In this document: one piece after another, positions 13,051 through 35,555 of the stretch
Layout: each line of letters opens with the position of its first letter
Position numbering within the stretch: position 1 is the stretch's first letter
Source: Minisyncoccota bacterium
Lineage (GTDB): Bacteria > Patescibacteriota > Minisyncoccia > Phycocordibacterales > UBA2100
Direction: 5' to 3'
DNA length: 64,000 nt
NCBI GenBank assembly: GCA_035500505.1
Contig: DATJXE010000004.1
Coordinates: 126,977-190,976 of the forward strand
Notes under the pieces: model-generated
Databases searched by the model: none
What the model was told of the DNA's origin: nothing
What the model saw: only the letters and a program-made list of their open reading frames with translations
Translations under genes and position numbers: made by a program

Positions 13051-13066
13051 AATATGATGCCCGCAA

Positions 13067-19256: not shown

Positions 19257-20213
19257 TCAGACTTGCACAACAATTTTCCCCACCGTGCCCCCCGACTTCA
19301 GTGCCTTGAGTGCTGTTGGCAGATTTTCGAACGTTTCTATTCTTGAGATGACAGGTTTGCCAATGTTGAGTTCGGCTATCTTTCCCATGTACTCGCGCAT
19401 CTTATCCGCCTCCTCGAATAAATAGATGAGGTTGAAGGACGACACCGAGATGTTGTTGAAGTGGAACACGTCGACGCGCGGGCGCGTGAGATATTTCCAT
19501 GCGACCGATAGATATGGAATCCGGTTCCCCCGGGGCATGTAGTGCGCGAAACCATAGACGGCCATGCGGCCGCGCTTGCCGAGCGCGCGCAGACTTTCGC
19601 GGAAAAAGCGCCCGCCCGTGCATTCCATGACGACGCTGAGCGTGCGCCCGTCGAGCGCATTCTGCAAGTCGCGGCGAAAGTTACGGCTTCGAACGATGAC
19701 CTTGTCGTATCCTTCCCGTTCGCAGAAATCCACCTTCGAAGCACTTCCGACGAGCCCGATGGTAAAACAGACGAACTTCTTCGCGATGCGATTTGCCATG
19801 ATACCGACGCCTCCCGCAGCGCTGTGAATGAGGACTGTTTCGCCTTTCTGCAAATGGCATTGGTCTACGAGGCCGTAGTAGGCGGTAAGTGCGGCGACCG
19901 GAAAAGCGGCGCCCTCTTCGAAGCTCCAGTTTTCCGGAAGCGCAACCGCCAAGCGCGCATCGACGTTGAGTGCTGTCGCGTAAGCCCCGAAACGGGTTAC
20001 TCCCATAACGCGGTCCCCTACCTTGATGTACTCTACATTCGGACCGACCTTCTCAACGACCCCCGCAAATTCAAGCCCTGGAATGAACCGCTTCCAACCA
20101 GCGGCTGTGTAGAGACCGACGACGGCGAACGCATCGGCAAAGTTGAGTCCGATGGCTTTGACGGCGACCTGTACTTCCCCCGGTTTCGGATCGCTTAGTT
20201 CCTCCTCCAGCAT
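19257..20213 (-). CDS. zinc-type/quinone oxidoreductase of the MDR superfamily
   Basis: MLEEELSDPKPGEVQVAVKAIGLNFAD...GETVLIHSAAGGVG (Rossmann GxxGxxG) ...; ORF-track N-terminal extension to 20525 overlaps the upstream gene and is rejected. Confidence 0.75.
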   Translation of the reverse strand: MLEEELSDPKPGEVQVAVKAIGLNFADAFAVVGLYTAAGWKRFIPGLEFAGVVEKVGPNVEYIKVGDRVMGVTRFGAYATALNVDARLAVALPENWSFEEGAAFPVAALTAYYGLVDQCHLQKGETVLIHSAAGGVGIMANRIAKKFVCFTIGLVGSASKVDFCEREGYDKVIVRSRNFRRDLQNALDGRTLSVVMECTGGRFFRESLRALGKRGRMAVYGFAHYMPRGNRIPYLSVAWKYLTRPRVDVFHFNNISVSSFNLIYLFEEADKMREYMGKIAELNIGKPVISRIETFENLPTALKALKSGGTVGKIVVQV

Positions 20214-20265
20214 CCTGAGGTTCCGAATGTTGCCTGGTTTTGAGTAATATGCGCGCCTTCGCATA

Positions 20266-21159
20266 CTACCCGTCCAACAAACCGAGCCTATACACATCAA
20301 AGGAGTTCTCCCCTTCGAACATATCTGACGGATTCGGAAGGTAGAGCCGCGGGCGGGAAATTTCTTGCGTGGCATCGCGCAAGAGCCGGTGGAATAATTT
20401 GAACTCCTCGTCAATTTTGTTGAAATCGATGACGTAGCGCTTGAGCTGCGCGCTGCCGTCTTTGTTGCGGGATTTTTTGCACTCGTAGACGATGAACCGC
20501 CGCACCGGCTTTCCAAAATTCTCACGCACGACGTAGTAGTTGAAGAGCGCCTGCATGACGAAGAGCGTCTTCCCTGCCTTGTCCTTGCTGAAACTTTCGA
20601 CGAATTTATGGTCGATTATGTCGAGGCTCCCTGGTTCGACGCGGGATTCGACGACGAGATCGGAGACTGCCTTGATGGGAAGCGGCAGGCCCTCGACCTT
20701 CGCCATCGCAGAGAATTCTACACCGAGCACGTTGTGCTTGGGTGGTTTGGCAAGATAAAAATTGATGACTCGGAGGTAGTCGCTTTCCATTTTAGCTCGA
20801 AGTGCTTTCTGCGCCGCTTTCGACTTCGCCTTTCCGAAATTGATCTCGAAATCCGGGATCTTGCGGATGTATTCCAAACCGAGCTCTATCCCACCGTCTT
20901 TGGCTATGCCGCCATAAAAGTGCTGAAGTGCCAGGTGCGCGGCACTACCAACTATTGAGGACGGGTTCCTCGGCGTGTCGTATATCTTCTCGACATAGCG
21001 TTTGTACCACGCGAGCGGATTGCGCAGGAAAGCCATCAGAGATGAATGGCTCCAGTATTTGATGGGTAGCTTTTGCTTTTCGAGTGCCTGTTCCGCCTCT
21101 TTTTTCCATCTGTCGAGCGACGGTTTTGATATCGCCGTCTGTGGAGTTGCGCGCGCCAT
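20266..21159 (-). CDS. PD-(D/E)XK (RecB/Cas4-like) nuclease family protein
   Basis: N-terminal YWSHSSLMAFLRNPLAWYKRYV resembles the conserved start of PDDEXK_1 nucleases; IIDHKF and VYECKK candidate D/ExK motifs. Confidence 0.5.
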   Translation of the reverse strand: MARATPQTAISKPSLDRWKKEAEQALEKQKLPIKYWSHSSLMAFLRNPLAWYKRYVEKIYDTPRNPSSIVGSAAHLALQHFYGGIAKDGGIELGLEYIRKIPDFEINFGKAKSKAAQKALRAKMESDYLRVINFYLAKPPKHNVLGVEFSAMAKVEGLPLPIKAVSDLVVESRVEPGSLDIIDHKFVESFSKDKAGKTLFVMQALFNYYVVRENFGKPVRRFIVYECKKSRNKDGSAQLKRYVIDFNKIDEEFKLFHRLLRDATQEISRPRLYLPNPSDMFEGENSFDVYRLGLLDG

Positions 21160-21189
21160 GAGTCGAGTATATCATCGTGCGAACGCGTT

Positions 21190-21387
21190 TTGGGAACGCG
21201 TTCTACGGAGGGAAACTTGGATCGGAAAGGCAGCCTCTTTGGCTACGACCGCAACGAATACCGCACAGGGATCGAGATCGACCCCGAGGGCGTTTCCGAG
21301 CTGAAAAAACTCGGAAAGGACTTCGCGGTGGCCGTCGGCAAGCTCATTCGTGCGTGCGCGCACTTCGCGGCATTCATTCCGGTGTGA
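21190..21387 (+). CDS. small hypothetical protein (65 aa)
   Basis: ORF followed by a strong hairpin terminator; no motif. Confidence 0.3.
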   Translation: MGTRSTEGNLDRKGSLFGYDRNEYRTGIEIDPEGVSELKKLGKDFAVAVGKLIRACAHFAAFIPV

Positions 21388-21408
21388 CCCATCACGCCGC
21401 AATCGTGT

Positions 21409-21446
21409 GGCCCCGCCCGAGTACCTGGGCGGGGCCGGATCTTTTC
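21409..21446 (+). terminator. intrinsic terminator (GGCCCCGCCC-loop-GGGCGGGGCC + GGATCTTTTC)
   Basis: Perfect 10-bp inverted repeat followed by T-run. Confidence 0.5.
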
Positions 21447-21567
21447 ATGAGGCTATTCACAGAAAAGGCTTGACCTGAGCCACGATAGGGATAAAATCCT
21501 GCGAGCCGTTCCAGATAGTACGGATGCGTCGGCTGCAACTCTGACAATCAATCAATGGGGACTTGGA

Positions 21568-22155
21568 ATGAAGCCTGTCTTTCTTTCACTGGTCGGGCCG
21601 CAAGCAGGCACGACCCGCCTTTACGAAAAGCTCAAGTTCGCATGGCCCGCGACGTTTCCCGACCGGACATGCGAGTTCCTCGGGGATCCGCTCGCCGAAC
21701 ACTGGGAGAAGATGAAGATCGGAGACAAGCGCAAGCGCGACTTCCCTCCGATGGCTCGCTTGTGTTTCCGGTGGGGCTTCTTCTACGCGTACAACGAAAG
21801 GGTCGTGGGTCCCGCCTTCAAGCGGGGGGTCGACGTTATTCTCGTACGCCAGTTCGGCTTCGACGTCTATGCGGGGGCAGTGGTGCACAACGACTGTGAA
21901 CGGTCGTTGTCGCTCCACATGGCTCTCGTTCCGTTCGGTGTCTACGATCTTGAACTTTGCGCTCCTCTGTACGTGTTCACCGAAGAGCTCGACGACCGGA
22001 CGCGGCTCAATCACGACCGGTATTTCGCCCCGGGTAATGGCCAGCGTTCTTGCCGAATAAATCCCGCGCTTTCCGACAACGACAAGGTCGCAGCCCTGAC
22101 GGACATCGCAAGGGCGGAGCTTGCCCGTCGGGAAGAAACAGCGGTCGCTGCGTAA
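21568..22155 (+). CDS. thymidylate-kinase-like P-loop protein with degenerate Walker A (GPQAGTT, no Lys)
   Basis: SLVGPQAGTTRLYEKL aligns with Tmk GIDGAGKTTQ...L; DRYF segment aligns with the Tmk DRY motif; upstream TTGACC-N17-TAAAAT promoter-like sequence. Confidence 0.4.
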   Translation: MKPVFLSLVGPQAGTTRLYEKLKFAWPATFPDRTCEFLGDPLAEHWEKMKIGDKRKRDFPPMARLCFRWGFFYAYNERVVGPAFKRGVDVILVRQFGFDVYAGAVVHNDCERSLSLHMALVPFGVYDLELCAPLYVFTEELDDRTRLNHDRYFAPGNGQRSCRINPALSDNDKVAALTDIARAELARREETAVAA

Positions 22156-22224
22156 CTGTCCGCCTGCTCTGTCCACATACGATACGCGGGACCTCCGGGT
22201 CCCGCGTATTTCTTTTTCAGATCG

Positions 22225-23295
22225 TTATCGCGACAATTTCCCTTTTGAGATCACGTGGAGGGCTCTCGTGTTGAGGTCGACCGTGCCCGCAAGGATCTGG
22301 AGCTTCTTCATGATCTTCGGCACGCGCTCGCGCAACACGCGCTCGCTCTCGCGCGCGAGGAACAGCGTTTTCTCTATCGCAACGCCCTGGTCGGCGCCGA
22401 TGGTGCGGAACGGGGCGCACAGGAGCAACAGCGCTCCGTCTTTTTCGGGGATGCGCTTCGCTTTCATGTTCCCGAGAACGATGTTCCCCGCAACCGCGAT
22501 GGCGTCCTCCCAACGCGGGTCGTACGGCCCGATGATGAGCGCACGATTCGGCACGTGGAGCCAGTCGAATCCTCGCCCGACCGCGATGATCTGCTCTTTG
22601 TGTTCCAGGTCAACGACCGGTGGCTTTTTCGCGCGTACTTCGGCAACATACTTCTGGTTGCCTTGGATGAGCGGTAGGAGGTCTTCGATGATGCGGTCGG
22701 GCATTTCGGGGTACATGTGCCGCAATTGGGTGTGGATGTTTTCGGCGCTCGCATCAATGTGTTCGGCAACGTCGAACGTCTGTGCGCCTTCGCTGTGGAA
22801 GATGAGTCCCCCCTCATCCGTTTCTATGCCGACGACGAGCGGAAACACGGCGATGTGGTTCCCGCCAAAAGCGAATTTGAATTGGTCGCGCAGCTTTTTC
22901 GCGCCCTTTTTCGCGGCGTTGGTGTCATATCCGTATCCCGCGCAGCCGCGGTGTTTATCTCCCTTCGAGAAATGGTAGGTCGAGAGCACGATGGTCGGGC
23001 GACCTTTGGAAACGGCATATTCGATATCTTCGAGCATGAGCCGGCCGAAAAAGGGCCAACCGAGGTCGAATTTGCCGCCGATGTTGCGGTAAGGCTTGAT
23101 GATGCCCTGCGGGGTGTTGGTCGTGAGTGCGAGGTTGAGCCTTCCGTCCATGCATTTCAGCGCAAGGATCTCGCTCGGGTGCTGGGCACGATACAAGCGC
23201 CGCGCGAGCTGAGCGCCCGGCGTGCAGAATTCGGCGCTCTGCTTTTTGTTGCGCTCCAAAATAAATTGCGTCAAATTTTGCCTCTTTTGAGCCAT
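22225..23295 (-). CDS. hypothetical protein with beta-carbonic-anhydrase-like CxDxR / HxxC motifs
   Basis: LKCMDGRLN (C-x-D-x-R) and HRGCAGYG (H-x-x-C) about 70 residues apart; ATG at 23295 preceded by A-rich region; ORF-track upstream extension rejected. Confidence 0.4.
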   Translation of the reverse strand: MAQKRQNLTQFILERNKKQSAEFCTPGAQLARRLYRAQHPSEILALKCMDGRLNLALTTNTPQGIIKPYRNIGGKFDLGWPFFGRLMLEDIEYAVSKGRPTIVLSTYHFSKGDKHRGCAGYGYDTNAAKKGAKKLRDQFKFAFGGNHIAVFPLVVGIETDEGGLIFHSEGAQTFDVAEHIDASAENIHTQLRHMYPEMPDRIIEDLLPLIQGNQKYVAEVRAKKPPVVDLEHKEQIIAVGRGFDWLHVPNRALIIGPYDPRWEDAIAVAGNIVLGNMKAKRIPEKDGALLLLCAPFRTIGADQGVAIEKTLFLARESERVLRERVPKIMKKLQILAGTVDLNTRALHVISKGKLSR

Positions 23296-23352
23296 GGTCC
23301 GCGATATCCTACTACACTGGAAAGCCCACGACAATATGGTATCCTCATCGGT

Positions 23353-23922
23353 ATGAAAACTTCTAACATCATTTGGGCGATTATCGTGGTCATCATTTTG
23401 GTCGGTGGCTGGTACATTTGGATGCAAAGTTCGGTGCCTGCACCGACTTCGAATACGAACGGTCCTTCGACCGCGCTCGGACTCAACGGCTCTCCCAACC
23501 AGGGCAACCTGGGCCAGCCCGACAACGGCCAGGTGCAGCAACCCTCCACTTCGACCTCCTCGACGGGCGATGGTTCCGCCATCAGCGACAACCTAACCCT
23601 CGGCGTCGACTCAAAAGCATCCGTCGGCACCTACCTCATCGCCTACAACGGCATGACGCTCTACACCTATTCGGGCGATTCTGCCGGAGTCTCCAACTGC
23701 ACCGGAAGCTGCGCCGTGAACTGGCCACCCTACACCGTGCCGGCCGGTATGCACCTCAACTTGCAGGCGGGCGTGACGGGAGCCGCGAGCACCATCACTC
23801 GCGCCGACGGCACCACCCAGGTGACCTACAAAGGCATGCCGCTCTACTTCTTCGTTGGTGACACAACCTCTGGCGCAGTGACCGGGGACGGTGAAGGAGG
23901 TTTTTCCGTAGCGAAACCCTAG
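23353..23922 (+). CDS. secreted lipoprotein-like protein with tandem Yx(FWY)xxD motifs (COG4315-like)
   Basis: N-terminal TM IIWAIIVVIILVGGWYIW; two copies of the motif (LYTYSGD, LYFFVGD). Confidence 0.65.
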   Translation: MKTSNIIWAIIVVIILVGGWYIWMQSSVPAPTSNTNGPSTALGLNGSPNQGNLGQPDNGQVQQPSTSTSSTGDGSAISDNLTLGVDSKASVGTYLIAYNGMTLYTYSGDSAGVSNCTGSCAVNWPPYTVPAGMHLNLQAGVTGAASTITRADGTTQVTYKGMPLYFFVGDTTSGAVTGDGEGGFSVAKP

Positions 23923-24006
23923 TTTTTCGGGAATTCTCGACGAGTGCTCCCCTCGCTGGGGAGTAATGGAAAAGGCGTTCGAACGTCTTCATGAGGTTAG
24001 GAGCTA

Positions 24007-24333
24007 ATGCTTATATCTATGCTTTTTTCTTTCATCATCGGGATTATCCTCGGAGCGATCGCGGTCATATTTGCATTCCAGAATGTCGCGGTCGTGACGG
24101 TTAGTTTCTTCACGTGGCAACTCACCGGTTCTTTGGCGATCGTTATTCTCGGCACGCTTCTGTGCGGCATCGTGCTCACCCTCCTCTTTCTCCTGCCGAG
24201 CGTCATTCGCGATGAGTTCTACCTCGCGACCATCAAACGCCAAAAGCGCGAGGCCGAGGATGAACTCGCGCGCATCAAGAATTCTCCCGCTCCCGCGTCC
24301 GTTTCTTCGACCACGGCGGTTGTAACCCCCTAA
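24007..24333 (+). CDS. LapA/DUF1049-like small inner-membrane protein
   Basis: Two TM helices followed by charged helical tail KRQKREAEDELARIK. Confidence 0.45.
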   Translation: MLISMLFSFIIGIILGAIAVIFAFQNVAVVTVSFFTWQLTGSLAIVILGTLLCGIVLTLLFLLPSVIRDEFYLATIKRQKREAEDELARIKNSPAPASVSSTTAVVTP

Positions 24334-24392
24334 GTTTGGACAACTCGGTCCGATAGGCGTAGGATTTCTACAGCGAATTCTGGCGGGAGAAA

Positions 24393-24851
24393 GTGCCCGT
24401 CGTCGTAGCAATGGGAATGCCCATGTCGAATCCGATGAAGAGAGTCTATGTTCTTTTCGTGGGGATGAGCCTGCCTGCGTTCGGGAATGAAGACCGAAAA
24501 CTCCGCCAAGCGCTGCTTGCAGAAGACAAGTGCTGGGCGCTCGTCACAGTGCCTGGGATAACGGTGCAAGAGGCTGCGATTCGCGCCAGCACAAGCGCGA
24601 ACCTTGATATTGTATTCATCTCAAACCAGGTCGAGTATTCGATATATTCACTCGCCGAGGGCTGTAAGGAACTTGCCGAGAAGTTGGCAAAGCGATCAAG
24701 CCCGCCCTGGGTCTGCTTCGACAAGCGCTGGCTCTACTCTCTGGCAGCGAGCTTCCGGACCAACGGGCTTACCATCTGTGAAGGAAGACTTGAGGAAATT
24801 ATCCGGAGACGGTGGGAGCATCAACGTCGAAAGGTGCATCATGTCGGTTAG
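24393..24851 (+). CDS. hypothetical protein (152 aa)
   Basis: ORF with several Cys; stop overlaps next start (ATGTCGGTTAG). Confidence 0.35.
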   Translation: MPVVVAMGMPMSNPMKRVYVLFVGMSLPAFGNEDRKLRQALLAEDKCWALVTVPGITVQEAAIRASTSANLDIVFISNQVEYSIYSLAEGCKELAEKLAKRSSPPWVCFDKRWLYSLAASFRTNGLTICEGRLEEIIRRRWEHQRRKVHHVG

Positions 24852-24984
24852 AGACAGAATAAGAACGCTGCTCGATAATCGCCTCTTGAACCTCTTGGCC
24901 TGCGGCATCGGTCTCGCGGTCGCGATCGGAGCACTCGGGCTTCTTGGGGGCCAGCTGCGCTTGCCCACTTTCCCGTTCGGCTGA
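24840..24984 (+). CDS. 48-aa single-TM peptide
   Basis: MSVRDRIRTLLDNRLLNLLACGIGLAVAIGALGLLGG; translationally coupled to preceding ORF. Confidence 0.3.
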
Positions 24985-25005
24985 GCCGAACCCAGCATCA
25001 TCAAT

Positions 25006-25040
25006 CCGGCCGGAGCCTCGCGCTCCGGCCGTTTGATTTT
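25006..25040 (+). terminator. cassette module A: GC hairpin (CCGGCCGGAGC-loop-GCTCCGGCCG) + TTTGATTTT
   Basis: First of five related hairpin+T-run elements; stem flanks CGGCCG conserved, inner stem GGAGC/GCTCC. Confidence 0.6.
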
Positions 25041-25061
25041 GGGAACTGCGAGGTATAGCAT
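25033..25061 (+). promoter_or_regulatory. cassette promoter A: TTGATT-N15-TATAGCAT (sigma70-like -35 / extended -10)
   Basis: Identical spacing and near-identical sequence in copies B and C; GGAGG RBS 8 nt before ATG 25082. Confidence 0.5.
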
Positions 25062-25081
25062 TCCAGGCAGGAGGTGCCGCC

Positions 25082-25276
25082 ATGAGCAAGAGTATTCTTG
25101 GGACGTTCTTCGCCCGCCTCACATCGCGAGAACCGCCGTTCTGCGTTGAATGTGGGAGCACCGACATGGAGCTCGTTGACAAGGTCCTTGTCTGCAAACT
25201 CTGCGCCAACAGGCAGGCCAACGCTGCGGCCGACCGCCGCATCCTGCCCGAACTCGACACGTTCTCCGGGCACTAA
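25082..25276 (+). CDS. 64-aa zinc-ribbon protein (CxxC-N16-CxxC)
   Basis: FCVECGST...LVCKLCAN; first gene of cassette A. Confidence 0.5.
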   Translation: MSKSILGTFFARLTSREPPFCVECGSTDMELVDKVLVCKLCANRQANAAADRRILPELDTFSGH

Positions 25277-25287
25277 CGGAGGGGAAA

Positions 25288-25530
25288 ATGACACACTATG
25301 CTCCCGATCCGCACCACTCCTCGGCAACGGCAAGGGAGGTTGTCCGGGTCGTTCTCATCGCCTTCGCGGTCCTTTACATTTACATGGCGTTCAAGGGCCT
25401 GCCTCACTGGCCGGTCCTGGAAGAGAACGCGCTCACGCCTCGCGAACAGTATATCCTCGGAGGACTCGGCGTCGTCTGCGCCGCTCTGGCCGCCACCTGG
25501 TCCTGGATATGGCCGACCGGGGACGAGTGA
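25288..25530 (+). CDS. 80-aa 2-TM miniprotein
   Basis: GGAGGGGAAA RBS; helices VVRVVLIAFAVLYIYMAF and ILGGLGVVCAALAATWSWIW; 12 nt after previous stop. Confidence 0.5.
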   Translation: MTHYAPDPHHSSATAREVVRVVLIAFAVLYIYMAFKGLPHWPVLEENALTPREQYILGGLGVVCAALAATWSWIWPTGDE

Positions 25531-25556
25531 GTAGTTCGTCTCCGAATGATACCGAA

Positions 25557-25587
25557 CGGCCGGCAATTTGCTGGCCGTTTGATTTTG
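25557..25587 (+). terminator. cassette module B hairpin (CGGCCGGC-AATTT-GCTGGCCG) + TTTGATTTTG
   Basis: Same flanks as A with different, compensatory inner stem. Confidence 0.6.
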
Positions 25588-25607
25588 TGGGCCAGGAGGT
25601 ATAGCAT
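25579..25607 (+). promoter_or_regulatory. cassette promoter B: TTGATT-N15-TATAGCAT
   Basis: Copy of promoter A; GGAGGA RBS before ATG 25631. Confidence 0.5.
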
Positions 25608-25630
25608 CCCGACAGTTGGGAGGATCCGCC

Positions 25631-26098
25631 ATGAAACGCATCTTTCGAAGGGTGCTGCGCCCTTTGCGCATCCCCCTCAAACTGCTCAAACTTTTCGTCC
25701 TGCTAGTCGTCATGCCCCTATTGGGATCTGTCTGCTTCTACGCAAGATTCTTCAGCCACGAGAAACTGACTGACTACGGATACTGGTTCTTGCCCGGCGT
25801 CGTATTGGCTTGCATCGCTTTCCCTGTATGGTCCTGGTTCTTCGGGACGATGCGGAATGATCTGAAAATTATCGGCCGATTCCTGAACGAGAAGCCGAAC
25901 GGGAAGTATCCGGAGCGCTCGAACGGCATCGTCCTTGCAGGGCTCATCGTTTTTTCGTTTTTGTTCCTGGGTGGCGCCCTGGAATTGGTGAAGCACAATC
26001 CCGAAAAGATGTCGTACGTATTCGCAGCCATGCTCGTACTTGCCGGCGCCCTTCTCGTCCTGACATTTGCTCACGGACACCTGCGCGGCAAGCTCTAG
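25631..26098 (+). CDS. 155-aa 4-TM membrane miniprotein
   Basis: ATG 25631 with GGAGGA RBS (ORF-track TTG 25616 rejected); four hydrophobic helices. Confidence 0.55.
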   Translation: MKRIFRRVLRPLRIPLKLLKLFVLLVVMPLLGSVCFYARFFSHEKLTDYGYWFLPGVVLACIAFPVWSWFFGTMRNDLKIIGRFLNEKPNGKYPERSNGIVLAGLIVFSFLFLGGALELVKHNPEKMSYVFAAMLVLAGALLVLTFAHGHLRGKL

Positions 26099-26116
26099 CT
26101 TGCGATGACAGTCGAA

Positions 26117-26148
26117 ACGGCCGGGTTCTCCCCCGGCCGTTTGATTTT
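26117..26148 (+). terminator. cassette module C hairpin (ACGGCCGGG-TTCTCC-CCCGGCCGT) + TTGATTTTG
   Basis: Third copy of the element. Confidence 0.6.
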
Positions 26149-26168
26149 GTGAAGAGAGCGTATAGGAT
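26141..26168 (+). promoter_or_regulatory. cassette promoter C: TTGATT-N14-TATAGGAT
   Basis: Slightly diverged copy; GAGAGGA RBS before ATG 26191. Confidence 0.45.
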
Positions 26169-26190
26169 GATTGCAGATTGAGAGGACACA

Positions 26191-26574
26191 ATGACATCAG
26201 ACACAGACGACGCCCCCGACCTTGATTACTTCGCTTCGCTGGCAGTTGATCGTTTTTATAGGAACTGTTGGCGTATAACGAACAGCTTCTTCTACGGATT
26301 CGGCATCTACAGCGCGATAATCCTCTTGCTCGAGGTGCCGGGCGCTGGAACCACATGGTTTTGGCTGGGCGCCGGCCTTGCCGCGCTCCTCGATATACAA
26401 TGGTCGGTCTACGTTCACTTCTTCATTCGCCTGCAGCGCGGTACCTTCGGCATCAGACCGGACGAGGCGGATATGATCGGCCGTGCGATCGACAAGTGGC
26501 GTGACGAACGAGGATTGGAGAATCAACGCGAGGCCTATCGCCAAGAGTTATGGGAGATCTTTCGCCTCCAATGA
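26191..26574 (+). CDS. 127-aa 2-TM miniprotein
   Basis: Trp/Phe-rich helices FFYGFGIYSAIILLLEV and TTWFWLGAGLAALLDIQW; charged C-tail. Confidence 0.5.
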   Translation: MTSDTDDAPDLDYFASLAVDRFYRNCWRITNSFFYGFGIYSAIILLLEVPGAGTTWFWLGAGLAALLDIQWSVYVHFFIRLQRGTFGIRPDEADMIGRAIDKWRDERGLENQREAYRQELWEIFRLQ

Positions 26575-26597
26575 ACGAAAGAACTTGGAGAATGTCC

Positions 26598-26744
26598 ATG
26601 AGCGATACGATGATGAGACTATTGTTCTACACTTCGCCCGCCCTTGTTGCACTGCCGCTCCTGATCGTCTGGGGCGTTCGTGCAGTCCGGGAATTCAAAC
26701 GAAGCTGGAACTGGTTCTGGTGCAAAAGAGAGGCGCGACAATGA
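26598..26744 (+). CDS. 49-aa 1-TM peptide
   Basis: GGAGAA RBS 7 nt before ATG 26598; MSDTMMRLLFYTSPALVALPLLIVWGV; stop overlaps next start (ATGA). Confidence 0.35.
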   Translation: MSDTMMRLLFYTSPALVALPLLIVWGVRAVREFKRSWNWFWCKREARQ

Positions 26745-26938
26745 TCAGCCGCCGCGGCGTGACGAAGGGTATCCTCATCGTATTGTTCGTCCTTATCGTG
26801 GCCTCTTGTATCGTGGGTGTCGTCGTACTCGATCCGTGGACGATGGACGTGAGGCCCCTGGAACCGGTCAGACTAATCTTCGGGCTAATGTTCTTCGGCC
26901 TCGGCTTAGGTGGCATCAAGTCGATATTCGAGGCCTGA
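26741..26938 (+). CDS. 65-aa 2-TM miniprotein
   Basis: ILIVLFVLIVASCIVGVVVL and LIFGLMFFGLGLGGI; translationally coupled to preceding peptide. Confidence 0.4.
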   Translation: MISRRGVTKGILIVLFVLIVASCIVGVVVLDPWTMDVRPLEPVRLIFGLMFFGLGLGGIKSIFEA

Positions 26939-26957
26939 AAAGGCGGGCAACATGAAA

Positions 26958-26988
26958 ACGGCCGAGACACCTCGGCCGTTTTGCTTGC
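26958..26988 (+). terminator. cassette module D hairpin (ACGGCCGAG-ACAC-CTCGGCCGT) + TTTTGCTTG, followed by second hairpin CCTCCC...GGGAGG
   Basis: Fourth copy, inner stem again compensatory. Confidence 0.55.
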
Positions 26989-27011
26989 CTCCCCGCCTCG
27001 GGTGGGAGGCT

Positions 27012-27039
27012 TGGACAATACAGAACCCTGATATAGCAT
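27012..27039 (+). promoter_or_regulatory. cassette promoter D: TTGGAC-N14-TATAGCAT
   Basis: TATAGCAT octamer identical to A/B. Confidence 0.4.
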
Positions 27040-27109
27040 TCCTAGAGGAAATTTGAGCTTGAGCCCGAAACCTTGCGCGTTCTCGAAGTTGCCTGACAAG
27101 GGGAAAACC

Positions 27110-27379
27110 ATGGGAACAGTCGTTACGTTGCGGCAGGATCCGAATCGGCCCATCGAACAAAGGCTCTATGCGCGGTCGATGGTCGCGTGCACATTGAGAA
27201 CTTACGCTTTGAGCGAGGCCTACTTGCACGTCTTGGAATACCATCCCGAATCGCAGACGCTCCAGGATCGGTTTGCTCTTGCCGTCGAAATCGCCAAATG
27301 GGCATTGTTCAAAGCCGGAAAAAGCCTGATAGAAAATCCCCCGTTCATCGTGTCTGAATTGAGACCTCCGCCTTCGTGA
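27110..27379 (+). CDS. 89-aa soluble hypothetical protein
   Basis: AAGGGGA RBS before ATG 27110 preferred over ORF-track TTG 27053 (RBS spacing only 2-3 nt). Confidence 0.4.
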   Translation: MGTVVTLRQDPNRPIEQRLYARSMVACTLRTYALSEAYLHVLEYHPESQTLQDRFALAVEIAKWALFKAGKSLIENPPFIVSELRPPPS

Positions 27380-27397
27380 TGGATCAGGGAGACGAAA

Positions 27398-27721
27398 ATG
27401 GTCAATAAAGCATTGAGGAGCATGGTTGGCGTCGCCTTGGGAAGCCTGCGGGAACATTCCTTCGAGATCGGCGTAATCCTCGGAGCCCTGGCGTTCGGCA
27501 TGATGATACTCATCGTGCCGATCCTCCTGGTCGGCGAGCCGCTAACAGGTACACTGTCATTGCGCCAGGAGCTGGTCGGGATATTCAGCGCCATGGTAGG
27601 AACCATGACCGTAATCACGATCTCGCTGAGCATTCTTTGCTCCCGCCCTGATACGGGAAGCAACCCTCCACGCGGCCGGAAACCTCCTCCGGCCGTTTCG
27701 TTTTGCCTTCTGGAAGTTTAA
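27398..27721 (+). CDS. 107-aa 3-TM miniprotein
   Basis: GGGAGACGAAA RBS; helices GVILGALAFGMMILIVPILLVG, LVGIFSAMVGTMTVITISLSIL. Confidence 0.5.
   Translation: MVNKALRSMVGVALGSLREHSFEIGVILGALAFGMMILIVPILLVGEPLTGTLSLRQELVGIFSAMVGTMTVITISLSILCSRPDTGSNPPRGRKPPPAVSFCLLEV
27673..27705 (+). terminator. cassette module E hairpin (CGGCCGGA-AACCTCC-TCCGGCCG) + TTTCGTTTTG; array end
   Basis: Fifth copy, lacks the downstream TATAGCAT; overlaps last codons of 27398..27721. Confidence 0.55.
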
Positions 27722-28057
27722 CTAATTGGACACTGGGGTTGTGCCAGGGTCTTGGCGGCTGTACACGAAGGTCCAAACTTTGTTGTCAGGATCCGGTCGG
27801 GTAACAGTCGTAATGGCATCGAGCTCTCCTTGAGAAGTTTGATCATTCACCCAACCTTTTTGTTTCAACCTGTTCCAGATAGTTGTTGACACTGCGCTCC
27901 CATGTTCGTTCCAAAAACCGTCGAGTTCCCTCCTGCTCACGGCTCCGGCGAAATGGAATTCAAATTCGATCACGTTCCCGTGGTCGCGAATATTTGTCTT
28001 GACAAGCTCAATGTATTCCGGCGATGTAGATCGGGGACGTTCTGGGGATTCTTTCAT
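27722..28057 (-). CDS. hypothetical protein (111 aa)
   Basis: ORF convergent on the array; no motifs. Confidence 0.4.
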   Translation of the reverse strand: MKESPERPRSTSPEYIELVKTNIRDHGNVIEFEFHFAGAVSRRELDGFWNEHGSAVSTTIWNRLKQKGWVNDQTSQGELDAITTVTRPDPDNKVWTFVYSRQDPGTTPVSN

Positions 28058-28080
28058 TGGGAGCAGTTTACCACCTCAGA

Positions 28081-29340
28081 TCAGTAACTCCGCAACTGCT
28101 TCGCCCGCTCGTGGAAGCGGATACGTTCCAATGCCTTGGCTTCTATTTGGCGGATGCGCTCGCGCGTGACGCCGAATTCGCGGCCGACTTCTTCGAGGGT
28201 GTAGCAGATGCCCTCGTCGGTGAGACCGTTGCGCATTTCCAAGATCTTGCGCTCTTTCGGAGAAAGTTCGTCGAGGATGTCCATCATTTGCTCGGAGAGA
28301 ATGCGGCGCGAGGCGTCTTGGTCGGGTGATGCGATGGTTTCGTCCGCAATGAAGCTGCCAAGCGTTGAGCGCTCGTCGTCATCCTCGCCTACCGGACTCT
28401 CCAAAGAGACAGTGTCTTGGTTGATTTTCTGGATGGTGTAGATTTTCTCCACCTCAATGCCCATTTCGGCGGCGATTTCTTCCGGAAGCGGATCGCGGCC
28501 CAAATGTTGGCTCAATTCCCTCACTTTTTGCTTATATTTCGCGATAGTTTCGACCATGTGCACCGGGATGCGGATGGTGCGCGACTGGTCGGCGAGCGCG
28601 CGGGTGATGGCCTGGCGGATCCACCAGGTCGCGTAGGTCGAGAATTTGTAGCCCTTGGTGTAGTCGAATTTGTCGACTGCCTTGAAGAGACCAAGGTTGC
28701 CTTCCTGGATGAGGTCGAGGAGCGTGAGGTCGGGCGAGCGATTCACATATTTCTTGGCGATGGAAACCACGAGGCGGAGGTTGGAGCGCGCAAGAATGCC
28801 ACGAGCTTCATCGTCGCCTTCGACGATGCGCTTCGCAAGCGTCTTTTCCTGCTCACCATTCAAAAGCGGATACTGCCCTATCTCGCGCAAATACATCTGG
28901 ACGGAATCGTAGCCGGAGTCGGAGCGGCGATTCTGCAACTTCTTGCGCTCAAGCACGGAATCTGCCGAGGTGTCCTCGAGCATGCCGCCGCCTTCGAGCA
29001 CGTCGATGCCGGCCGCGCCGAAGCGCTCATACATCTCTTCGAGCAACGTCATGTTGTCCTCTATCGTCGGGAACTCGCGAAGGATCTCGTCGTAGGTGAT
29101 GTACCCGCGCTCGCGGCCGAGTTTGATGAGCGCTTCCACCTTGGTCTGCGCTTTGCCCTGCAAAAGAAGCGACTTCGCCTTCGAGCGTGCCGCGGGACGC
29201 TTCGAAGTTTTGCGTGCTCTGCCAACGGCAAAGCGCGCAGCGCGAGAGGACGCCGAACGGCGTTTTGCGACATGGGAAGAGGCGGCGCGCTTCACGCGCT
29301 TCATCGTCCTCTTTTTCGTGTGTTTTTTGGATGAAGCCAT
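28081..29340 (-). CDS. rpoD: RNA polymerase primary sigma factor (sigma-70)
   Basis: Regions 2-4: [50 protein letters not shown]; basic N-terminal tail. Confidence 0.9.
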
Positions 29341-29466
29341 AAAAATGATGCGAACACGCGAGAAAGCCGCCCCGCCTCCGCGGAAGCTGCTCTCACCGTG
29401 TCATCTTCTTTACTCATTTGATGGCTACTTTATTTCACCATCATCCCACGAGCAAAGGGAGGCATT

Positions 29467-31176
29467 CTACGCCATTCCGTCGAGCTGCGCAATGCGGCTT
29501 TTCAACAGGTTATACACAGTTTTTAAACGTTTAACTTCGGCCTCCTTCCCCTCTTCCTGCGCCAACAGCATGGCGTCATGGATCTCTGGCAAGCGTTCGG
29601 TGCGAAGGAGTTCGCGCACATGCATCCGCGCGTCGCTTTCAAGAGAGCGGCTTTTGCCGTGGTCGCGCTCTGCTTCGAAGCGCAGCGACTCCTGTTCCTC
29701 AGCGGGCAATGTGCGAAGCTTCTCGAATGAGTCTTTCCCGATGATTTCTTCAAGTTCCTTTGAAAATGCCTCTATGTCCAAGATCGGTTTCGGGAGCGAC
29801 TCTTGCCATAAGAGGAGGGCGAACGCTTGCCGCGCGCGGTCGGCCTTCGGTCGCACCGGTTTCGTCTCTTCTTCCTGCGACCGCTCCGGTTGAGGCATCT
29901 GCGGCAGCTTGGAGAGCGTTTCGCTTACTGCCGATTCTGAAACACTAAGCCGCGAAGCGATCTCGCGCACGTATTGCTCGCGCGCTATCGGCGAACGCAC
30001 ATCGGAGAGGAACGGCAGCACGGCGGCCTCGACGGAGCGGCGGAAATTGTCGGGACTTTTCGCATGTTCTTCGAGTACGTCGAGCAGGAACGTGATGATG
30101 TCCTTCGAATCGCGTATCGCTTTCTTCCACGCGTCGGCTCCCTGGGCGAGGATGAGGTCCGCCGGGTCCGATCCAGCCGGCAGGCGCGCGACTTTCACGT
30201 TGAGGCCGCCTTGGAGCGCGGCGCGCGCAGCGCGGCTCGCGGCTTTGATACCGGCTTCGTCAGCATCGAGCGCCAAGACGAGATTGTCGGTCATTCGACG
30301 GATAAGGGCCGCGTGCTCGGGCGTAAAGGCGGTGCCGGAAACCGCGACCGTATTCCCCCATCCGGCCTGGTGCGAAGCCAAGAGATCCATCTGACCTTCG
30401 ACCAAAACGGCGCAAGAAAGCTTGCGCATGGCCAACTTTGCCTTGTCGAAGCCGTAGAGAACGCGAGACTTGTGGAAGAGCGGCGTTTCGGGAGAATTCA
30501 GGTATTTCGGGGCCTCCGGCGAGGCGTTCTCGCCAAAAATACGCCCAGAAAAGGCTATGATGCGACCCGCGGAGTCGGCTATCGGGAACATGATGCGGTT
30601 GCGGAACTTATCCAAAATGCCCCTATCGCCTTTTTTGCCGACGCCCGCGTCGATGATCTCCTTGTCGGAAAACCCCTTCGATCTCAAGAAGTCGCAAGCG
30701 TCCGTCCAGCCGGCCCCCGCGAGTCCAAGACGGAATTCTTTGATCGTCGCGTCTTTCAACCCGCGCTCGCGCAGATACTTTTTCGCGTCATCAGAAAGTT
30801 TGGATGCGTGGTGGATCGTCGCCACTTCCATCAACTCGAACAACCGCTCACGCTCGTCTTTTTTCTCTTTGCCGCCGCACTCGTAGACTATCTCAACGCC
30901 TGCTTTGTCGGCCAGCACTTTCAGGGCGCCTTTGAAATCGAGTCCTTCTATTTTCTCCACGAACGTGAAGATGTCGCCGCCTTCGCCACACCCGAAACAG
31001 TGAAAAGTGCCACGCTCGGCGGAGACGAAGAACGAGGGCGTCTTCTCCGCGTGGAACGGACAGCGCGCGCGCAAAGTCGAACCCGCCCTGTCGAGCTTCA
31101 CGTATTGCGACACGACGTCCACGATGGAAAGCCTGTCTTTTATTTGTTGTACGGTGTCCGACGCCATCGCAGTCAT
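29467..31176 (-). CDS. dnaG: DNA primase
   Basis: CHC2 zinc finger CPFHAEKTPSFFVS...HCFGCG, Toprim region EGQMD...D..LALDAD; GGAG RBS before ATG 31176. Confidence 0.9.
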   Translation of the reverse strand: MTAMASDTVQQIKDRLSIVDVVSQYVKLDRAGSTLRARCPFHAEKTPSFFVSAERGTFHCFGCGEGGDIFTFVEKIEGLDFKGALKVLADKAGVEIVYECGGKEKKDERERLFELMEVATIHHASKLSDDAKKYLRERGLKDATIKEFRLGLAGAGWTDACDFLRSKGFSDKEIIDAGVGKKGDRGILDKFRNRIMFPIADSAGRIIAFSGRIFGENASPEAPKYLNSPETPLFHKSRVLYGFDKAKLAMRKLSCAVLVEGQMDLLASHQAGWGNTVAVSGTAFTPEHAALIRRMTDNLVLALDADEAGIKAASRAARAALQGGLNVKVARLPAGSDPADLILAQGADAWKKAIRDSKDIITFLLDVLEEHAKSPDNFRRSVEAAVLPFLSDVRSPIAREQYVREIASRLSVSESAVSETLSKLPQMPQPERSQEEETKPVRPKADRARQAFALLLWQESLPKPILDIEAFSKELEEIIGKDSFEKLRTLPAEEQESLRFEAERDHGKSRSLESDARMHVRELLRTERLPEIHDAMLLAQEEGKEAEVKRLKTVYNLLKSRIAQLDGMA

Positions 31177-31255
31177 TATGCTCCATCCAAAATGGAAAAG
31201 CGAAAGCCCGACATTTGCGTCGGGCATTCGATAGAACTTGATCCACAGAACTTGA

Positions 31256-31735
31256 TCAGCTGCACGCCAGCATGTCGTCACCCGGCTTGTCGCCTAAGGG
31301 GGCATAGTGTGCTTCGGAGACGGCCATCGGGATGAACTGAACGCAGTACTTCAGAACGAGCGCGTCGAGGTCCCCGAGCGTGACGGCGTCCGTCGACGCA
31401 TACAGCGCGATGGAGCGATCGGTGGCTGTGCCGTCGGACTTCTGTGCATCCGTGCAGTGTGGGAACAGCACGGCAGCGAGGCCCGGGAACAACGTGTCCT
31501 TTCGGACTACCTTGAATACCAGTCCTCGGGCCCAGAAATAGCCGTCCTCGGTCTTTTCGATGAACGGACACCTGTATTCGCGAAGTCCGTTCGCCGCCTT
31601 GACCAGAACTGATGTGTTCAGGCCTCGCCGTGATTCGAACCACTTTGCGTATGCATCCTGAAGCTTTGGCAGACTGGGCGGAAAGAACGGCCCACGCCAG
31701 CGCTTGAGTTTCGTATTAACTTGTTGGTTGCTCAT
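31256..31735 (-). CDS. hypothetical protein (160 aa) between rpoC and dnaG
   Basis: ATG at 31735; no recognisable motifs. Confidence 0.4.
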   Translation of the reverse strand: MSNQQVNTKLKRWRGPFFPPSLPKLQDAYAKWFESRRGLNTSVLVKAANGLREYRCPFIEKTEDGYFWARGLVFKVVRKDTLFPGLAAVLFPHCTDAQKSDGTATDRSIALYASTDAVTLGDLDALVLKYCVQFIPMAVSEAHYAPLGDKPGDDMLACS

Positions 31736-31842
31736 CGCGCTTCCTCCTCGGCCCTCTGCCGAATTCGAATGGCACTTTCGGCTTTGTACCACGAAAAACG
31801 CGCCGTTCAAAGCGGCGCGTTTTTCGTGCATTAGCTTGGCGA

Positions 31843-34800
31843 TTAGCGCTCGACCGTGTCGCGCTCCCGTTCGGTCGTCGGTATTTCGACCGGCTGTTGC
31901 GACTGGATCTCGGCTTCCATCTGCTCGACCAGCTCATATTTTTTGCTGCCCGCAAAGCCGGTGCCGGCGGGGATGAGACGGCCAATAATAACGTTCTCCT
32001 TGAGGCCGACAAGGCGGTCGACGGCGCCGCCGACGGCGGCTTCGGCCAACTTGCGCGGCGTGTTCTGGAAGGAGATCGCCGAGAGGAAGGATGCGCGCGT
32101 GAGCGAGACTTCGGTGATACCGAGCAAAAGCTGCTTGCCTTTCGCCGGTTCTTTGTCATTCTCTTTCGCCACTTTATTCAAGCGTTCGAATTCGAAGTCG
32201 GCGACGATGTCGCCCGCGGATACGCCCGTGTCGCCCACCGAGGTGATGGAGACGCGCGAGAACATCTGCTTGACGATGATCTCCAGGTGCTTACGCGCGG
32301 TCGAAACACCCTGCAATTCGTAGATGCGGGTGATCTCGCCGATGATGTACTCCTGGGAGCGCTCCTTGCCTGCGTAGAGGAAGAGCTCATCGAGGTCCGC
32401 GGAGCCGTTGGTGAGGAAGTCTCCCTTCTGCACGGAGTCGCCGACTTTGACGACGATGGTGCGGAGCGGGTGGACGCGGTATTCGGTCTCTTTCTTGGCA
32501 CCCTTTGCGGTCTTCGCGGTCGAGGCGGTTTCGGGAACGATGGTGATGACCATTTCGTCGCCGTCCTTCACGATGTCGGAAATGACGCCGGACACGCGAG
32601 CAATTGTCGCAGGAAGCTTCGGCGCGCGCGTTTCGAAGACCTCTTCGACGCGCGGCAGACCCATGGTGATGTCGCCGCCCGCGCTCGCAACGCCTCCGGT
32701 GTGGAAGGTACGCATCGTGAGCTGGGTGCCCGGCTCGCCGATCGCCTGCGCGGCGATAACGCCGACCGCTTCACCGACGTCGACGATCTCTCCCGTCGTG
32801 AGGTCGAGGCCGTAGCATTTCTGACAAACGCCGCGCGCGACCTTGCAGGTCATGGGCGAACGTACAGTGACTTCTTTGATGCTCGCGTCATCCTCGATGG
32901 CCTTCGCGTCGTCGCGGCTCACGAGGTGGCCGCGCTTGAATGTCCCCGCTTCTTCGGCCAATACCCTCCCGACAACTCTATCGGCGAACGAACCGCCGAT
33001 GTTCTCTTTGCCCGGGCGCTGTATCGCGACCCCGCCGTGCGTGCCGCAATCGTCTTCCAGTACAACGACGTCGTGCGCGACGTCGAAGAGGCGGCGCGTG
33101 AGGTAGCCGGCGCGCGCGGTGTTGAGTGCGGTGTCGGCCAAGCCTTTGCGGGCGCCGTGGGTCGAGATGAAGTATTCGATGGGCGTGAGACCTTCTTTCA
33201 AGGATGCGGTGATCGGGAATTCGATGATCTCGCCGCGCGGGTTGGTGATGAGTCCTTTCATACCGGCCATTTGGTGCAGCTGGACGACGCTACCACGAGC
33301 GCCGGAGGTTATCATGTCGTGCACCGGACCCTGCTTGTCGAGGGCCTCGACGACGTGCTTGCGGAGGTCGCCGGACACTTTCGCCCAGATCTCGATGGTC
33401 ATGCGCTTGCGCTCTTCTTCGGTGAGGAGTCCCTGCTGGTAGTTCTCCTCTTCCTTCGCGACGGCCTCGCGGCCCGCCTTGACCAGCCCTTCTTTCACTT
33501 CGGGAACGACGACGTCGGAGAGCGACCACGTGATGCCGGCCTCGGTCGCGTAGCGGAATCCGAACGCCTTTATCTTGTCGAGGATGGCGGGGATGCCGTC
33601 GAGCTTGTAGCGCGTGACGAGCTGGTGCACGAGCGAGTTCATCCGCTTGTTGGTTATTTCTTCATTGAGGAACGGGAAATCGCTCGGCAGGACGGAGTTG
33701 AAGAGAAGCCTGCCGACGCTCGTCTCGAAAACCTTGCCTTCGAACTGCGCGTACTTCGCGCTGTCGCCCGGCAGGACCTTTATCTTCGCGCGCAGATCGA
33801 CCGCGCCGAAATCGTGCGCGGTGATGGCGGCGTTGGTCGAGGGGAACGACTTCCCTTCGCCCGCGAGACCCTCGACTTGTTTGGTCATCCAGTAGCAGCC
33901 CAGGACGATGTCGAGCAATTTGGATGCGACGACGACGTCGCCGCTCCCAGGCTTCAAGACGTTCTTGTTGGCCGACATTATTTTTGCGGCCTCCATTTGC
34001 GCGGCTTCGGAGAGCGGCACGTGCACGGCCATGGCGTCGCCGTCGAAGTCGGCGTTGTACGCCGGGCAGACGAGCGGGTGCACCTGGATGGCGTTGCCTT
34101 CGATGAGGACCGGGCGGAAGGCCTGGATGGACTGGCGGTGGAGGGTCGGCGCGCGGTTCAAAAGCACGTACTTCCCTTTGATGGCCTCTTCGAGGATGGG
34201 CCAGACTTCCGGCGCTTCGTCTTCTATCAAGCGGCCGGCGCCGCGAATGTTGTAGGCGTGTTCCCTGGCGAGCAATCCTTGGATGACGAACGGGCGGAAC
34301 AGTTCCAAGACCATGTGTTTCGGAAGCCCGCACTCGTCGAGCGCGAGTTCGGGACCGACGACGATGACGGAACGTCCCGAGTAGTCAACGCGCTTGCCGA
34401 GGAGGTTCTGGCGGAGGTACCCGTGCTTGCCCTTGAGGTAATCGGCGAGCGATTTGAGCGCGCGACGGCGGCCTCCGAGAATACCAAGCACGCCTGCGCC
34501 GCGGCGCATGGAGTTGTCGAGAAGAGCGTCGACCGCCTCCTGCAAGATGCGCTTTTCGTTGCGCAAGATGACTTCCGGCGCGTGTATCTGCTGGAGACGC
34601 TTCAAACGGTTATTCCTGTTGATGACGCGGCGATAGAGGTCGTTGAGATCGGAAGACGCGTGGCGGCCGCCTTCGAGCGCGACCATGGGCCGAAGCGCCG
34701 GCGGAACGACCGGAAGGCGCGTCATGAACATCCACTCCGGACGGACGTCGGCGCGGCGCAGGCTCTCGGCGAGCGAGAGGCGCTTGCGCAGCTTGTCGCG

Positions 34801-35550: not shown

Positions 35551-35555
35551 AAGGA

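Follow-up and report, generated by a model that had tools for sequence, protein, structure and literature searches.

Candidate terminator-promoter linkers in a variable gene array downstream of rpoD in a Candidatus Kaiserbacteria bacterium

Five GC-rich hairpins with a T-rich tail, all on the + strand and all inside 2.7 kb, punctuate a run of small genes downstream of rpoD in a 64-kb stretch of DNA (hereafter the window, meaning the whole stretch that was analyzed). Protein comparison showed that the RpoD encoded in the window is 64-95% identical to the RpoD of Ca. Kaiserbacteria/Paceibacterota metagenome-assembled genomes (MAGs); the host is therefore a bacterium of the candidate phyla radiation (CPR; Patescibacteria), specifically Ca. 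Kaiserbacteria, and the window is core chromosome. The genomes of CPR bacteria are tiny and encode many small proteins whose function is unknown; to our knowledge, little is known about their promoters, terminators, and gene acquisition. The question raised by this locus is what a repeated hairpin does between such genes. An initial annotation, made from the sequence of the window, had described five copies of a structured element, each a fused terminator and promoter. We consider it probable, at about three chances in four, that the linkers containing the hairpins are intrinsic terminators joined, in copies 1-4, to a sigma-70-type promoter and a Shine-Dalgarno (SD) site, and that they make up one homologous, array-specific family in one Kaiserbacteria clade. 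The main point, which the initial annotation missed, is that on the genomes compared the linkers appear to be a lineage-wide family within a variable cassette array.

Hairpins and promoters of the array

All five hairpins were found on the + strand where they had been reported. Copy 1 (core stem 25007-25031; 25007-25041 with its tail) has a 10-bp stem, CGGCCGGAGC/GCTCCGGCCG, followed by the tail TTTGATTTTG, with a predicted folding energy of -22.4 kcal/mol (z -4.3). Copies 2 (25557-25577; 25557-25587 with tail; -22.4 kcal/mol, z -6.3) and 3 (26118-26139; 26118-26149 with tail; -21.7 kcal/mol, z -5.2) carry the same tail. Copy 4 (26959-26978; 26959-26988 with tail; -20.3 kcal/mol, z -6.1) pairs CGGCCGAG with CTCGGCCG between AAAA and TTTT flanks, and copy 5 (27673-27695; 27673-27705 with tail; -17.6 kcal/mol, z -3.9), which ends the array, has the tail TTTCGTTTTG. 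The claim that every copy keeps the outer stem and the 3' tail was largely borne out, except that the 3' arm of copy 2 reads TGGCCG, giving one G-U pair in the stem, and that the tail of copy 4 is TTTTGCTTGC. For each of the five hairpins, none of 200 shuffled sequences folded as well as the native one. Their stems of 8-13 bp, loops of 3-7 nt, and U-rich tract directly 3' of the stem are those of intrinsic terminators, and copies 1, 2, 3, and 5 were among the top matches of a terminator scan.

A covariance model built from the five copies (R1) was run unfiltered on the whole window. It scored copies 1-5 at 44.5, 43.1, 46.2, 39, and 44 bits, respectively; their own reverse strands came next, followed by unrelated terminators at 21 bits or less (best, 20.9). 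The motif CGGCCGTTTGATTTTG, with up to two mismatches allowed, occurs in the 64 kb only at copies 1, 2, 3, and 5. The window contains three exact TATAGCAT sites and, among the one-mismatch matches, TATAGGAT as the sole such variant; all four sites lie just past copies 1-4. Because of the folding, the gap in R1 scores, and the confinement of CGGCCGTTTGATTTTG and TATAGCAT, we regard the hairpin repeat as real, local, and far above chance. In copies 1-4 the hairpin begins 19-26 nt past the stop codon of a co-oriented gene. No generic dispersed repeat lacking a link to gene starts was seen in the 64 kb, the copies being confined to the array and placed after stop codons. No Rfam family reached its gathering score in 23800-28200; the best match had 23 bits (E 0.19), the gathering score being 47.

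The compensatory base changes reported for these hairpins are real, and the inner stem sequences had been quoted approximately right. Among the five copies, three of the 12 stem pairs are changed on both sides and 90% of the cells are paired, against 25-53% when the partner was slid by 1-3 columns. In a model-fitted family alignment of 35 unique sites from several species, the three inner modelled pairs (GC, CG, or AT) were paired in 32/34, 33/33, and 28/33 sites, and the outer stem showed a few double changes too. Since pairing is kept through compensatory changes, the hairpin appears to be selected as a structure. The further claim that structure and not sequence is under selection did not hold: the outer stem CGGCCG(G) and the tail TTTGATTTTG hardly vary, either across the window or in a species with only about 70% DNA identity in conserved genes. 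Selection would therefore act on sequence as well as on structure.

Promoter-like sequences follow four of the five hairpins. In P1 (25033-25084, +), P2 (25579-25633, +), and P3 (26141-26193, +), past copies 1-3, the hexamer TTGATT is followed after 17, 17, and 16 nt by TAGCAT, TAGCAT, and TAGGAT, respectively, the -10 region matching TATAGCAT at 25054-25061 and 25600-25607 and TATAGGAT at 26161-26168. The -10 box lies 22, 22, and 21 nt past the hairpin's 3' end, and the ATG (25082, 25631, and 26191) follows it by 20-23 nt, with SD sites of the GGAGG type between (GGAGG at 25070-25074, GGGAGG at 25618-25623, and GAGAGG). The copy 2 linker is 82% identical to that of copy 1 over 38 nt, and the segment from the SD site to the ATG matches too (repeats D6 and D15).

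The fixed distance between hairpin and promoter that had been claimed for four copies applies to these three but not to copy 4, where TATAGCAT (27032-27039) lies 53 nt past the hairpin. There, an extra hairpin (26987-27010, +; -15.8 kcal/mol, z only -1.5) separates the terminator from P4 (27011-27039, +), which was detected by promoter scan and has its own -35, TTGGACA(A), at 27011-27017, 16 nt before TAGCAT; the leader to the ATG at 27110 is about 70 nt long. The TGGACA of P4, 16 nt before TAGCAT, conforms to sigma-70 spacing and matches the consensus hexamers at 9 of 12 positions; the -10 hexamers of P1-P4 all have A in second and T in sixth position. In the 64 kb, TTGGACAA is found only at 27011 and at P0 (24336-24365, +; TTGGACA(A), 17-nt spacer, TAGGAT), which was likewise detected by promoter scan, directly after the stop codon of the LapA-domain gene that precedes the array. 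Copy 5 has no -10 match downstream.

The proposal that the T-run of the terminator doubles as the -35 region is plausible for copies 1-3, where TTGATT would lie within the sequence coding for the U-tract. Since copy 4 and most of the relatives' copies use a separate -35, TTTGGACAA, downstream of the TTTGATTTTG tail, sharing would be a compacted variant rather than the general design. The description of each module as a fused terminator-promoter is thus supported for copies 1-3, but it does not extend to the family in general or to copy 5, which lacks a promoter. The further statements of the initial annotation, that the modules insulate the cassettes from read-through and lend each the same promoter strength, stand as predictions from sequence.

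In the reading we favor, each hairpin would act as a Rho-independent terminator that ends one mini-operon, and in copies 1-4 a sigma-70-type promoter within about 20-55 nt of the terminator, followed by an SD site, would start the next. The linkers would measure roughly 75-150 bp from hairpin to start codon and would cut the 3.4-kb stretch 24336-27705 into five self-contained transcription units, predicted to be transcriptionally autonomous because termination would be followed directly by sigma-70-type initiation. Copy 5 would close the array against the convergent genes (27722-28057 and rpoD). We infer actual termination and initiation, and their strength, from these sequence features.

Several observations weigh against this reading. 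The short-form promoters (TTGATT/TAGCAT) match the consensus at 8 of 12 positions only and were missed by the promoter scan, and the register of the -10 box is ambiguous (TATAGC or TAGCAT), the PDDEXK_1 promoter of the relatives using GGTATACT. Copy 5 lies inside an open reading frame (ORF) of the last unit, u4b (27398-27721), whose stop codon (27719-27721) is 14 nt past the T-tract, an awkward position for an efficient terminator. This read-through of copy 5 suggests either a frameshift, real or due to an assembly error, or non-stop transcripts. An out-of-frame TGA is present at 27649-27651, 21 nt before the copy 5 hairpin and within the 19-26 nt range of the stop codons of the other units. 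Moreover, TTTGATTTTG and CGGCCG are kept strictly also in linkers with a separate -35, which exceeds what a terminator needs and hints at an additional, sequence-specific role.

One such role would be that of a DNA operator, in which CGGCCG...CGGCCG binds a dimeric regulator, overlaps the -35, and co-regulates all units. The conservation of the outer half-sites and of the adjacent TTTGATTTTG would fit a binding site, as would the immediate adjacency of the hairpin to the TTGATT -35 in copies 1-3. The distance between the half-sites is variable, though (the hairpin spans 20-25 nt in the window and up to about 36 nt in the family), which is unsuited to a fixed dimer; the compensatory changes between the half-sites keep pairing and so point to a folded RNA or single strand; and copy 5 has no promoter to regulate. 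We consider an operator improbable.

The linker family in related genomes

A search of 80 rpoD loci of relatives with R1 (L-numbers denote the individual loci or contigs) gave matches of 20-34 bits downstream of rpoD in L002, L013, L019, L035, L006, L009, L005, and L007, which are the closest relatives among the 80 loci. Almost all matches are on the strand opposite rpoD, that is, in the same relative place and orientation as the array in the window. In many of these modules the hairpin and tail are followed by (C)TTTGGACAA, about 14 nt, and GG(G)TATAGCAT or TATAGGAT.

A metagenome scan for the tail and -10 box led to three contigs of another species, L086-L088. The gene order of L088 agrees with that of the window across IleRS, PrsW, HSP20, and PDDEXK_1, at a DNA identity of about 70%, and L088 has about 11 modules in 5.7 kb; the array continues past the end of the examined sequence. 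Most L088 modules read ...CCGGCCGTTTGATTTTG and then cTTTGGACAA...GGTATAG(C/G)AT, that is, with a separate TTTGGACAA -35, and the module at 4520 has the short form of copies 1-3. P4 has the same design as the promoters in L088, L009, and L019. The second hairpin between tail and -35, GCCTCCC..GGGAGGC in the window (26987-27010), has a counterpart in L088, CCTGCCTGCGCAGGCAGG at about 5225-5245 after module 5184, and this linker variant is therefore present in two species. The cargo of the L088 array includes two S-adenosylmethionine (SAM)-dependent methyltransferases and otherwise small proteins without a known family.

The closest species representative, L002 (RpoD 89%, LapA 76%), has the same TTGGACAA promoter directly after LapA, followed by three different cassettes (a 66-aa ORF, a methyltransferase, and a DUF559-like protein) that are separated by CGGCCGGGCTC...hairpin-TTCGTTTTGGACAA linkers. 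The features of the individual modules are those of a canonical Rho-independent terminator and sigma-70 promoter: a GC-rich stem of 8-13 bp, a loop of 3-7 nt, a U-rich tail after a stop codon, and -35/-10 boxes 16-17 nt apart. What sets them apart is that the five local copies share the outer stem, tail, and -10 box almost base for base and recur in other species around different genes. Because near-identical sequences recur in this way, both locally and across species, the linkers are unlikely to be independent terminators and promoters. The parts are ordinary; distinctive, as far as these sequences allow one to judge, is the use of one linker family throughout a variable array and its retention across species while the cargo changes.

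The interval between rpoD and the PDDEXK_1 nuclease gene is itself variable. Homologues of PDDEXK_1, 55-81% identical, lie 160 bp to 9.4 kb downstream of rpoD in the relatives; the interval measures 162-549 bp in L012, L029, L014, L018, and L036, 2-9 kb in L002, L009, L013, L016, L019, L021, L023, L035, L003, and L031, and 6.9 kb in the window. Hairpins of the R1 type are present in filled intervals only. The interval genes LapA, Lipoprotein_15, the CsoSCA-like protein, g195, and g111m are patchy, each occurring in a subset of the species. The LapA gene (24007-24333, +; 108-aa membrane protein, Pfam LapA_dom, E 1.7e-14) is the last gene before the array that is common to relatives, with tblastn homologues in L002, L026, L035, and L013.

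Other repeated elements were observed in the relatives. L006 (2374, 3026, and 5788) and L005 (13271 and 13854), both Paceibacterota MAGs, have near-identical hairpins of their own, GGCCGGAATCC-loop-GGATTCCGGCC with a T-tract, repeated downstream of rpoD, which suggests genome-specific homogenization of terminators. AT-flanked palindromes with ATTCGCGCGAAT lie between terminator and promoter in some linkers of L088 (CTATTCGCCTATTCGCGCGAATTAGAGAATAG; about 6140-6180 and 9895-9930) and in L016 (about 12380-12420), where the palindrome is perfect over 30 nt. L018 has, at 11290-11500 in its otherwise nearly empty rpoD-PDDEXK_1 interval, an element of about 190 bp that resembles a miniature inverted-repeat transposable element (MITE), with 21-nt inverted ends AATTCGCGCGACTGGCCTCCC. 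The palindromes and the MITE-like element may represent a regulator site or else a small mobile element associated with the hotspot.

Cargo and its turnover

The transcription units hold one to three genes each, and the encoded proteins are small and mostly membrane ORFans with transmembrane (TM)-like segments. Gene calls were taken from the 196-kb source metagenome contig (ENA ERZ27256576), and all units are on the + strand. Unit 0 (24411-24984) comprises ORFs of 146 and 47 aa without a match in Pfam, PHROG, or PADLOC. Unit 1 (25082-25530) encodes a 64-aa CxxC...CxxC protein and an 80-aa membrane protein, unit 2 (25631-26098) a 155-aa multi-pass membrane ORFan with TM-like segments (u2), and unit 3 (26191-26938) proteins of 127, 48, and 65 aa, with an SD site before each start; units 1 and 3 are without a family match. 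Unit 4 (27110-27721) contains u4a, 89 aa from the ATG at 27110 (called as 106 aa from a TTG at 27059), and u4b. An SD-like motif lies a few nt before the start codon in eight of the nine ORFs of units 1-4, and the GC content at third codon positions (GC3) of the called cargo ORFs is 0.63-0.77, inside the range of other ORFs in the window.

Searches of Pfam, PHROGs, and PADLOC with the proteins of units 1-4 gave nothing significant, and a word-indexed search of 5.8 billion clustered proteins with u2 and u4a gave self-matches only. The cargo is almost entirely non-homologous between species. In L088, a homologue was found for u4a alone among the cargo (34% identity over 88 aa, E 2e-7; local tblastn), and u4a is in the last unit of the array in the window and in the first unit of the array in L088.

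How could the linkers be conserved while the cargo turns over? One possibility, which extends the reading of the linkers as terminators and promoters and does not exclude it, is that they provide portable homology, and that homologous recombination between copies inserts, deletes, or swaps self-expressing cassettes. It would account for the rpoD-PDDEXK_1 interval being empty in some relatives and filled in others, for the wholly different cassettes, joined by the same kind of hairpin, that follow the shared post-LapA promoter in L002, and for the change of place of u4a. In L088, about 110 nt of the linker at 6074 recur at about 90% identity in the linker at 9844; the matching stretch reaches from the 3' hairpin arm to the -10 box, and the similarity ends at unrelated flanking ORFs. 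After its g146-like gene L013 has a single module, at the place taken in the window by copies 1 to 5 with units 1-4 between them. Modules are also slightly more alike within a genome than between genomes (similarity 0.71 against 0.64; permutation p about 5e-4), and linkers that recombine are known from T4-type phages (PMC2839356, PMC4122927). However, look-ups of u2, LapA, and RpoD returned the source contig and a duplicate only; with no strain-level variants of this species among the sequences compared, no recent gain or loss bounded by linkers was seen. The module spacing is identical in the three contigs of the L088 species, linker homology in the window is short (about 16-40 nt near identity), and the native-like GC3 of the cargo gives no sign of recent import. 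It is thus from patterns between species that we infer recombination at the linkers, and we hold it as a tentative explanation, with the odds somewhat against it. The fuller proposal of an integrase-free cassette system in the rpoD-PDDEXK_1 interval of Kaiserbacteria, with the linker CGGCCGG-loop-CCGGCCG-TTTGATTTTG ... TTTGGACAA ... GGTATAGCAT serving both as expression signal and as recombination substrate, is a little more doubtful still.

Alternatively, the array might have arisen by tandem duplication of one ancestral promoter-gene-terminator unit, with the regulatory parts alone remaining recognizable as small membrane proteins diverged fast. The likeness of the copy 1 and copy 2 linkers from hairpin to ATG is as expected from such a history, many of the cargo proteins are indeed small and rich in TM-like segments, and there is a weak match between the 108-aa LapA protein and u4b (38% over 39 aa, E 0.011 against the small local cargo set; DNA repeat D7). 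The other cargo proteins show no significant similarity to one another, and we found no convincing paralogy among cargo proteins within or between species. The units differ in the number of genes and in kind (CxxC, soluble, and membrane proteins), and methyltransferases and a DUF559-like protein are among the cargo of the relatives. LapA and Lipoprotein_15, flanking genes of similar size, are still detectable at 37-77% identity across the same species. Tandem duplication, which leaves the unrelated cargo unexplained, is in our opinion unlikely.

Known systems and chromosomal setting

By analogy, the closest described system would be the promoter-early stem-loops (PeSLs) of T4-type phages. These composite promoter/terminator motifs lie beside ORFans in the hyperplastic regions of the phage genomes, where modules are shuffled through them (PMC2839356, PMC4122927). 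In both arrangements a sigma-70-like promoter, an SD site, and a GC-rich stem-loop terminator are combined in a short conserved intergenic module, many copies of which occur in a variable region, mostly beside ORFans and with unrelated genes between the modules; in both, the cassettes are transcriptionally self-contained, as predicted here, and related genomes differ by whole cassettes. In contrast to PeSLs, the linkers lie among housekeeping genes of a CPR chromosome and not in a phage; their stem-loop is upstream of the promoter, whereas that of PeSLs is between the -35 and -10 boxes or over the -10 box; and their stem is CGGCCGG/CCGGCCG rather than GGGG/CCCC. Recombination and mini-circles have been demonstrated experimentally for PeSLs (Arbiol et al. 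2010, PMC2839356; Comeau et al. 2014, PMC4122927), whereas recombination is deduced here from comparison of genomes. A scan of viral contigs with the module pattern gave no matches.

The array also resembles integrons and clusters of attC sites lacking integron-integrases (CALINs), in that co-oriented, small, mostly unknown genes stand between structured repeats whose structure and outer arms are better conserved than their inner sequence. At six of seven positions, the GTTTGAT that follows the stem agrees with GTTRRRY, the R' core of attC sites. The sites known as attC are about 55-140 bp long, with paired R''/R' (RYYYAAC/GTTRRRY) and L''/L' boxes, and integron cassettes lack promoters. The hairpins in the window are 20-25 nt long and the repeat is about a quarter of the attC length. 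They have no extrahelical bases, and their 5' flank is not complementary to the conserved GTTTGAT, leaving no R''/R' pairing. Each cassette carries its own promoter-like site, and no integrase or other recombinase domain was found among the scanned ORFs in the 64 kb. The alternative within this reading is a selfish repeat of the repetitive extragenic palindromic (REP) or MITE type, for which the MITE-like inverted repeat in the same interval of L018 might speak; a copy-and-paste repeat was rejected because, in the 64 kb scanned, the copies are confined to the array and lie in one orientation, with inner stems that differ. Recombination sites of the attC type and selfish repeats are together the least probable of the explanations considered and are, on these observations, largely refuted.

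Like phage morons and the minimal mobile elements of Neisseria, the array consists of putatively self-contained promoter-gene-terminator units in a fixed interval, here rpoD-PDDEXK_1, with lineage-variable content, a comparison that draws in part on the discussion in PMC2839356. Neither morons nor minimal mobile elements are known to be bounded by a conserved family of repeated linkers. No description of such an arrangement was found in the literature on Patescibacteria terminators and promoters, on CPR variable regions, or on conserved terminator/promoter linkers between cassettes. What appears to be new, on the sequences compared here, is that in a CPR lineage a fixed chromosomal hotspot combines variable cassettes with a linker that is conserved.

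The surroundings of the array are those of a chromosome. The window contains gyrA, the gene for an S1 protein, Sua5, MiaA, TsaD, IleRS, rpoB, rpoC, dnaG, rpoD, TrmD, SMC, NusB, RNase HII, dnaE, a class II aminoacyl-tRNA synthetase, a sortase, and gyrB. No integrase, transposase, REP-associated tyrosine transposase (RAYT), or phage gene was detected among the scanned ORFs across the 64 kb, and a similarity search of 20000-32000 gave no phage match and plasmid matches to the rpoD core only. The variable interval is bounded on the left by the conserved PDDEXK_1 nuclease gene (20266-21159, -; Pfam PF12705) and on the right by rpoD (28081-29304, -; 407 aa, primary sigma factor, Pfam Sigma70 regions 1.1 to 4), which is convergent with the array.

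Several further features of the window were recorded. The genes rpoB, rpoC, a 159-aa ORF, dnaG, and rpoD form one co-oriented block (28081-38756, -), and the N-terminus of RpoD has a very high Lys and Arg content. A 111-aa ORF (27722-28057, -) that lies between the array and rpoD was uncalled in the source assembly; it is probably a real gene because it has homologues in L013 (34%, E 9e-16) and L023. A 356-aa protein (22225-23295, -) has a weak Pfam match to CsoSCA_cat, the catalytic domain of carboxysome shell carbonic anhydrase (E 5e-6), a domain unexpected in a Kaiserbacteria genome; it is 74-75% identical in L013 and L023. Five tRNA genes are clustered in about 5.5 kb (7586, 7855, 10345, 11987, and 13067; 7586-13137). 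At 54049-53985 (-), a terminator unrelated to the array family, AAAACGGCCCGGAGCC...GGGTCGTTTT, is followed, 8 nt or less downstream, by a TTGACA-17-TATAAT promoter upstream of a 149-aa ORF (53384-53833). Given this unrelated fusion with a near-consensus promoter, tight packing of terminator and promoter is normal in this compact genome.

For a Kaiserbacteria clade, these results provide a concrete conserved promoter/terminator pair that may be useful for annotation and expression tools, and they define a chromosomal hotspot, rpoD-PDDEXK_1, that is empty in some species and filled with up to about 9 kb in others. If a role of the linkers in recombination fails, what is left is a tidy group of related terminators and promoters of an ordinary kind. 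The array nevertheless offers a testable case of whether regulatory linkers, so far described for T4-type phages, also organize gene turnover on bacterial chromosomes. The proposed cassette system, if real, would give phage PeSLs a counterpart in cells, and through it episymbiotic bacteria, whose genomes are tiny, could renew their small membrane proteins rapidly.

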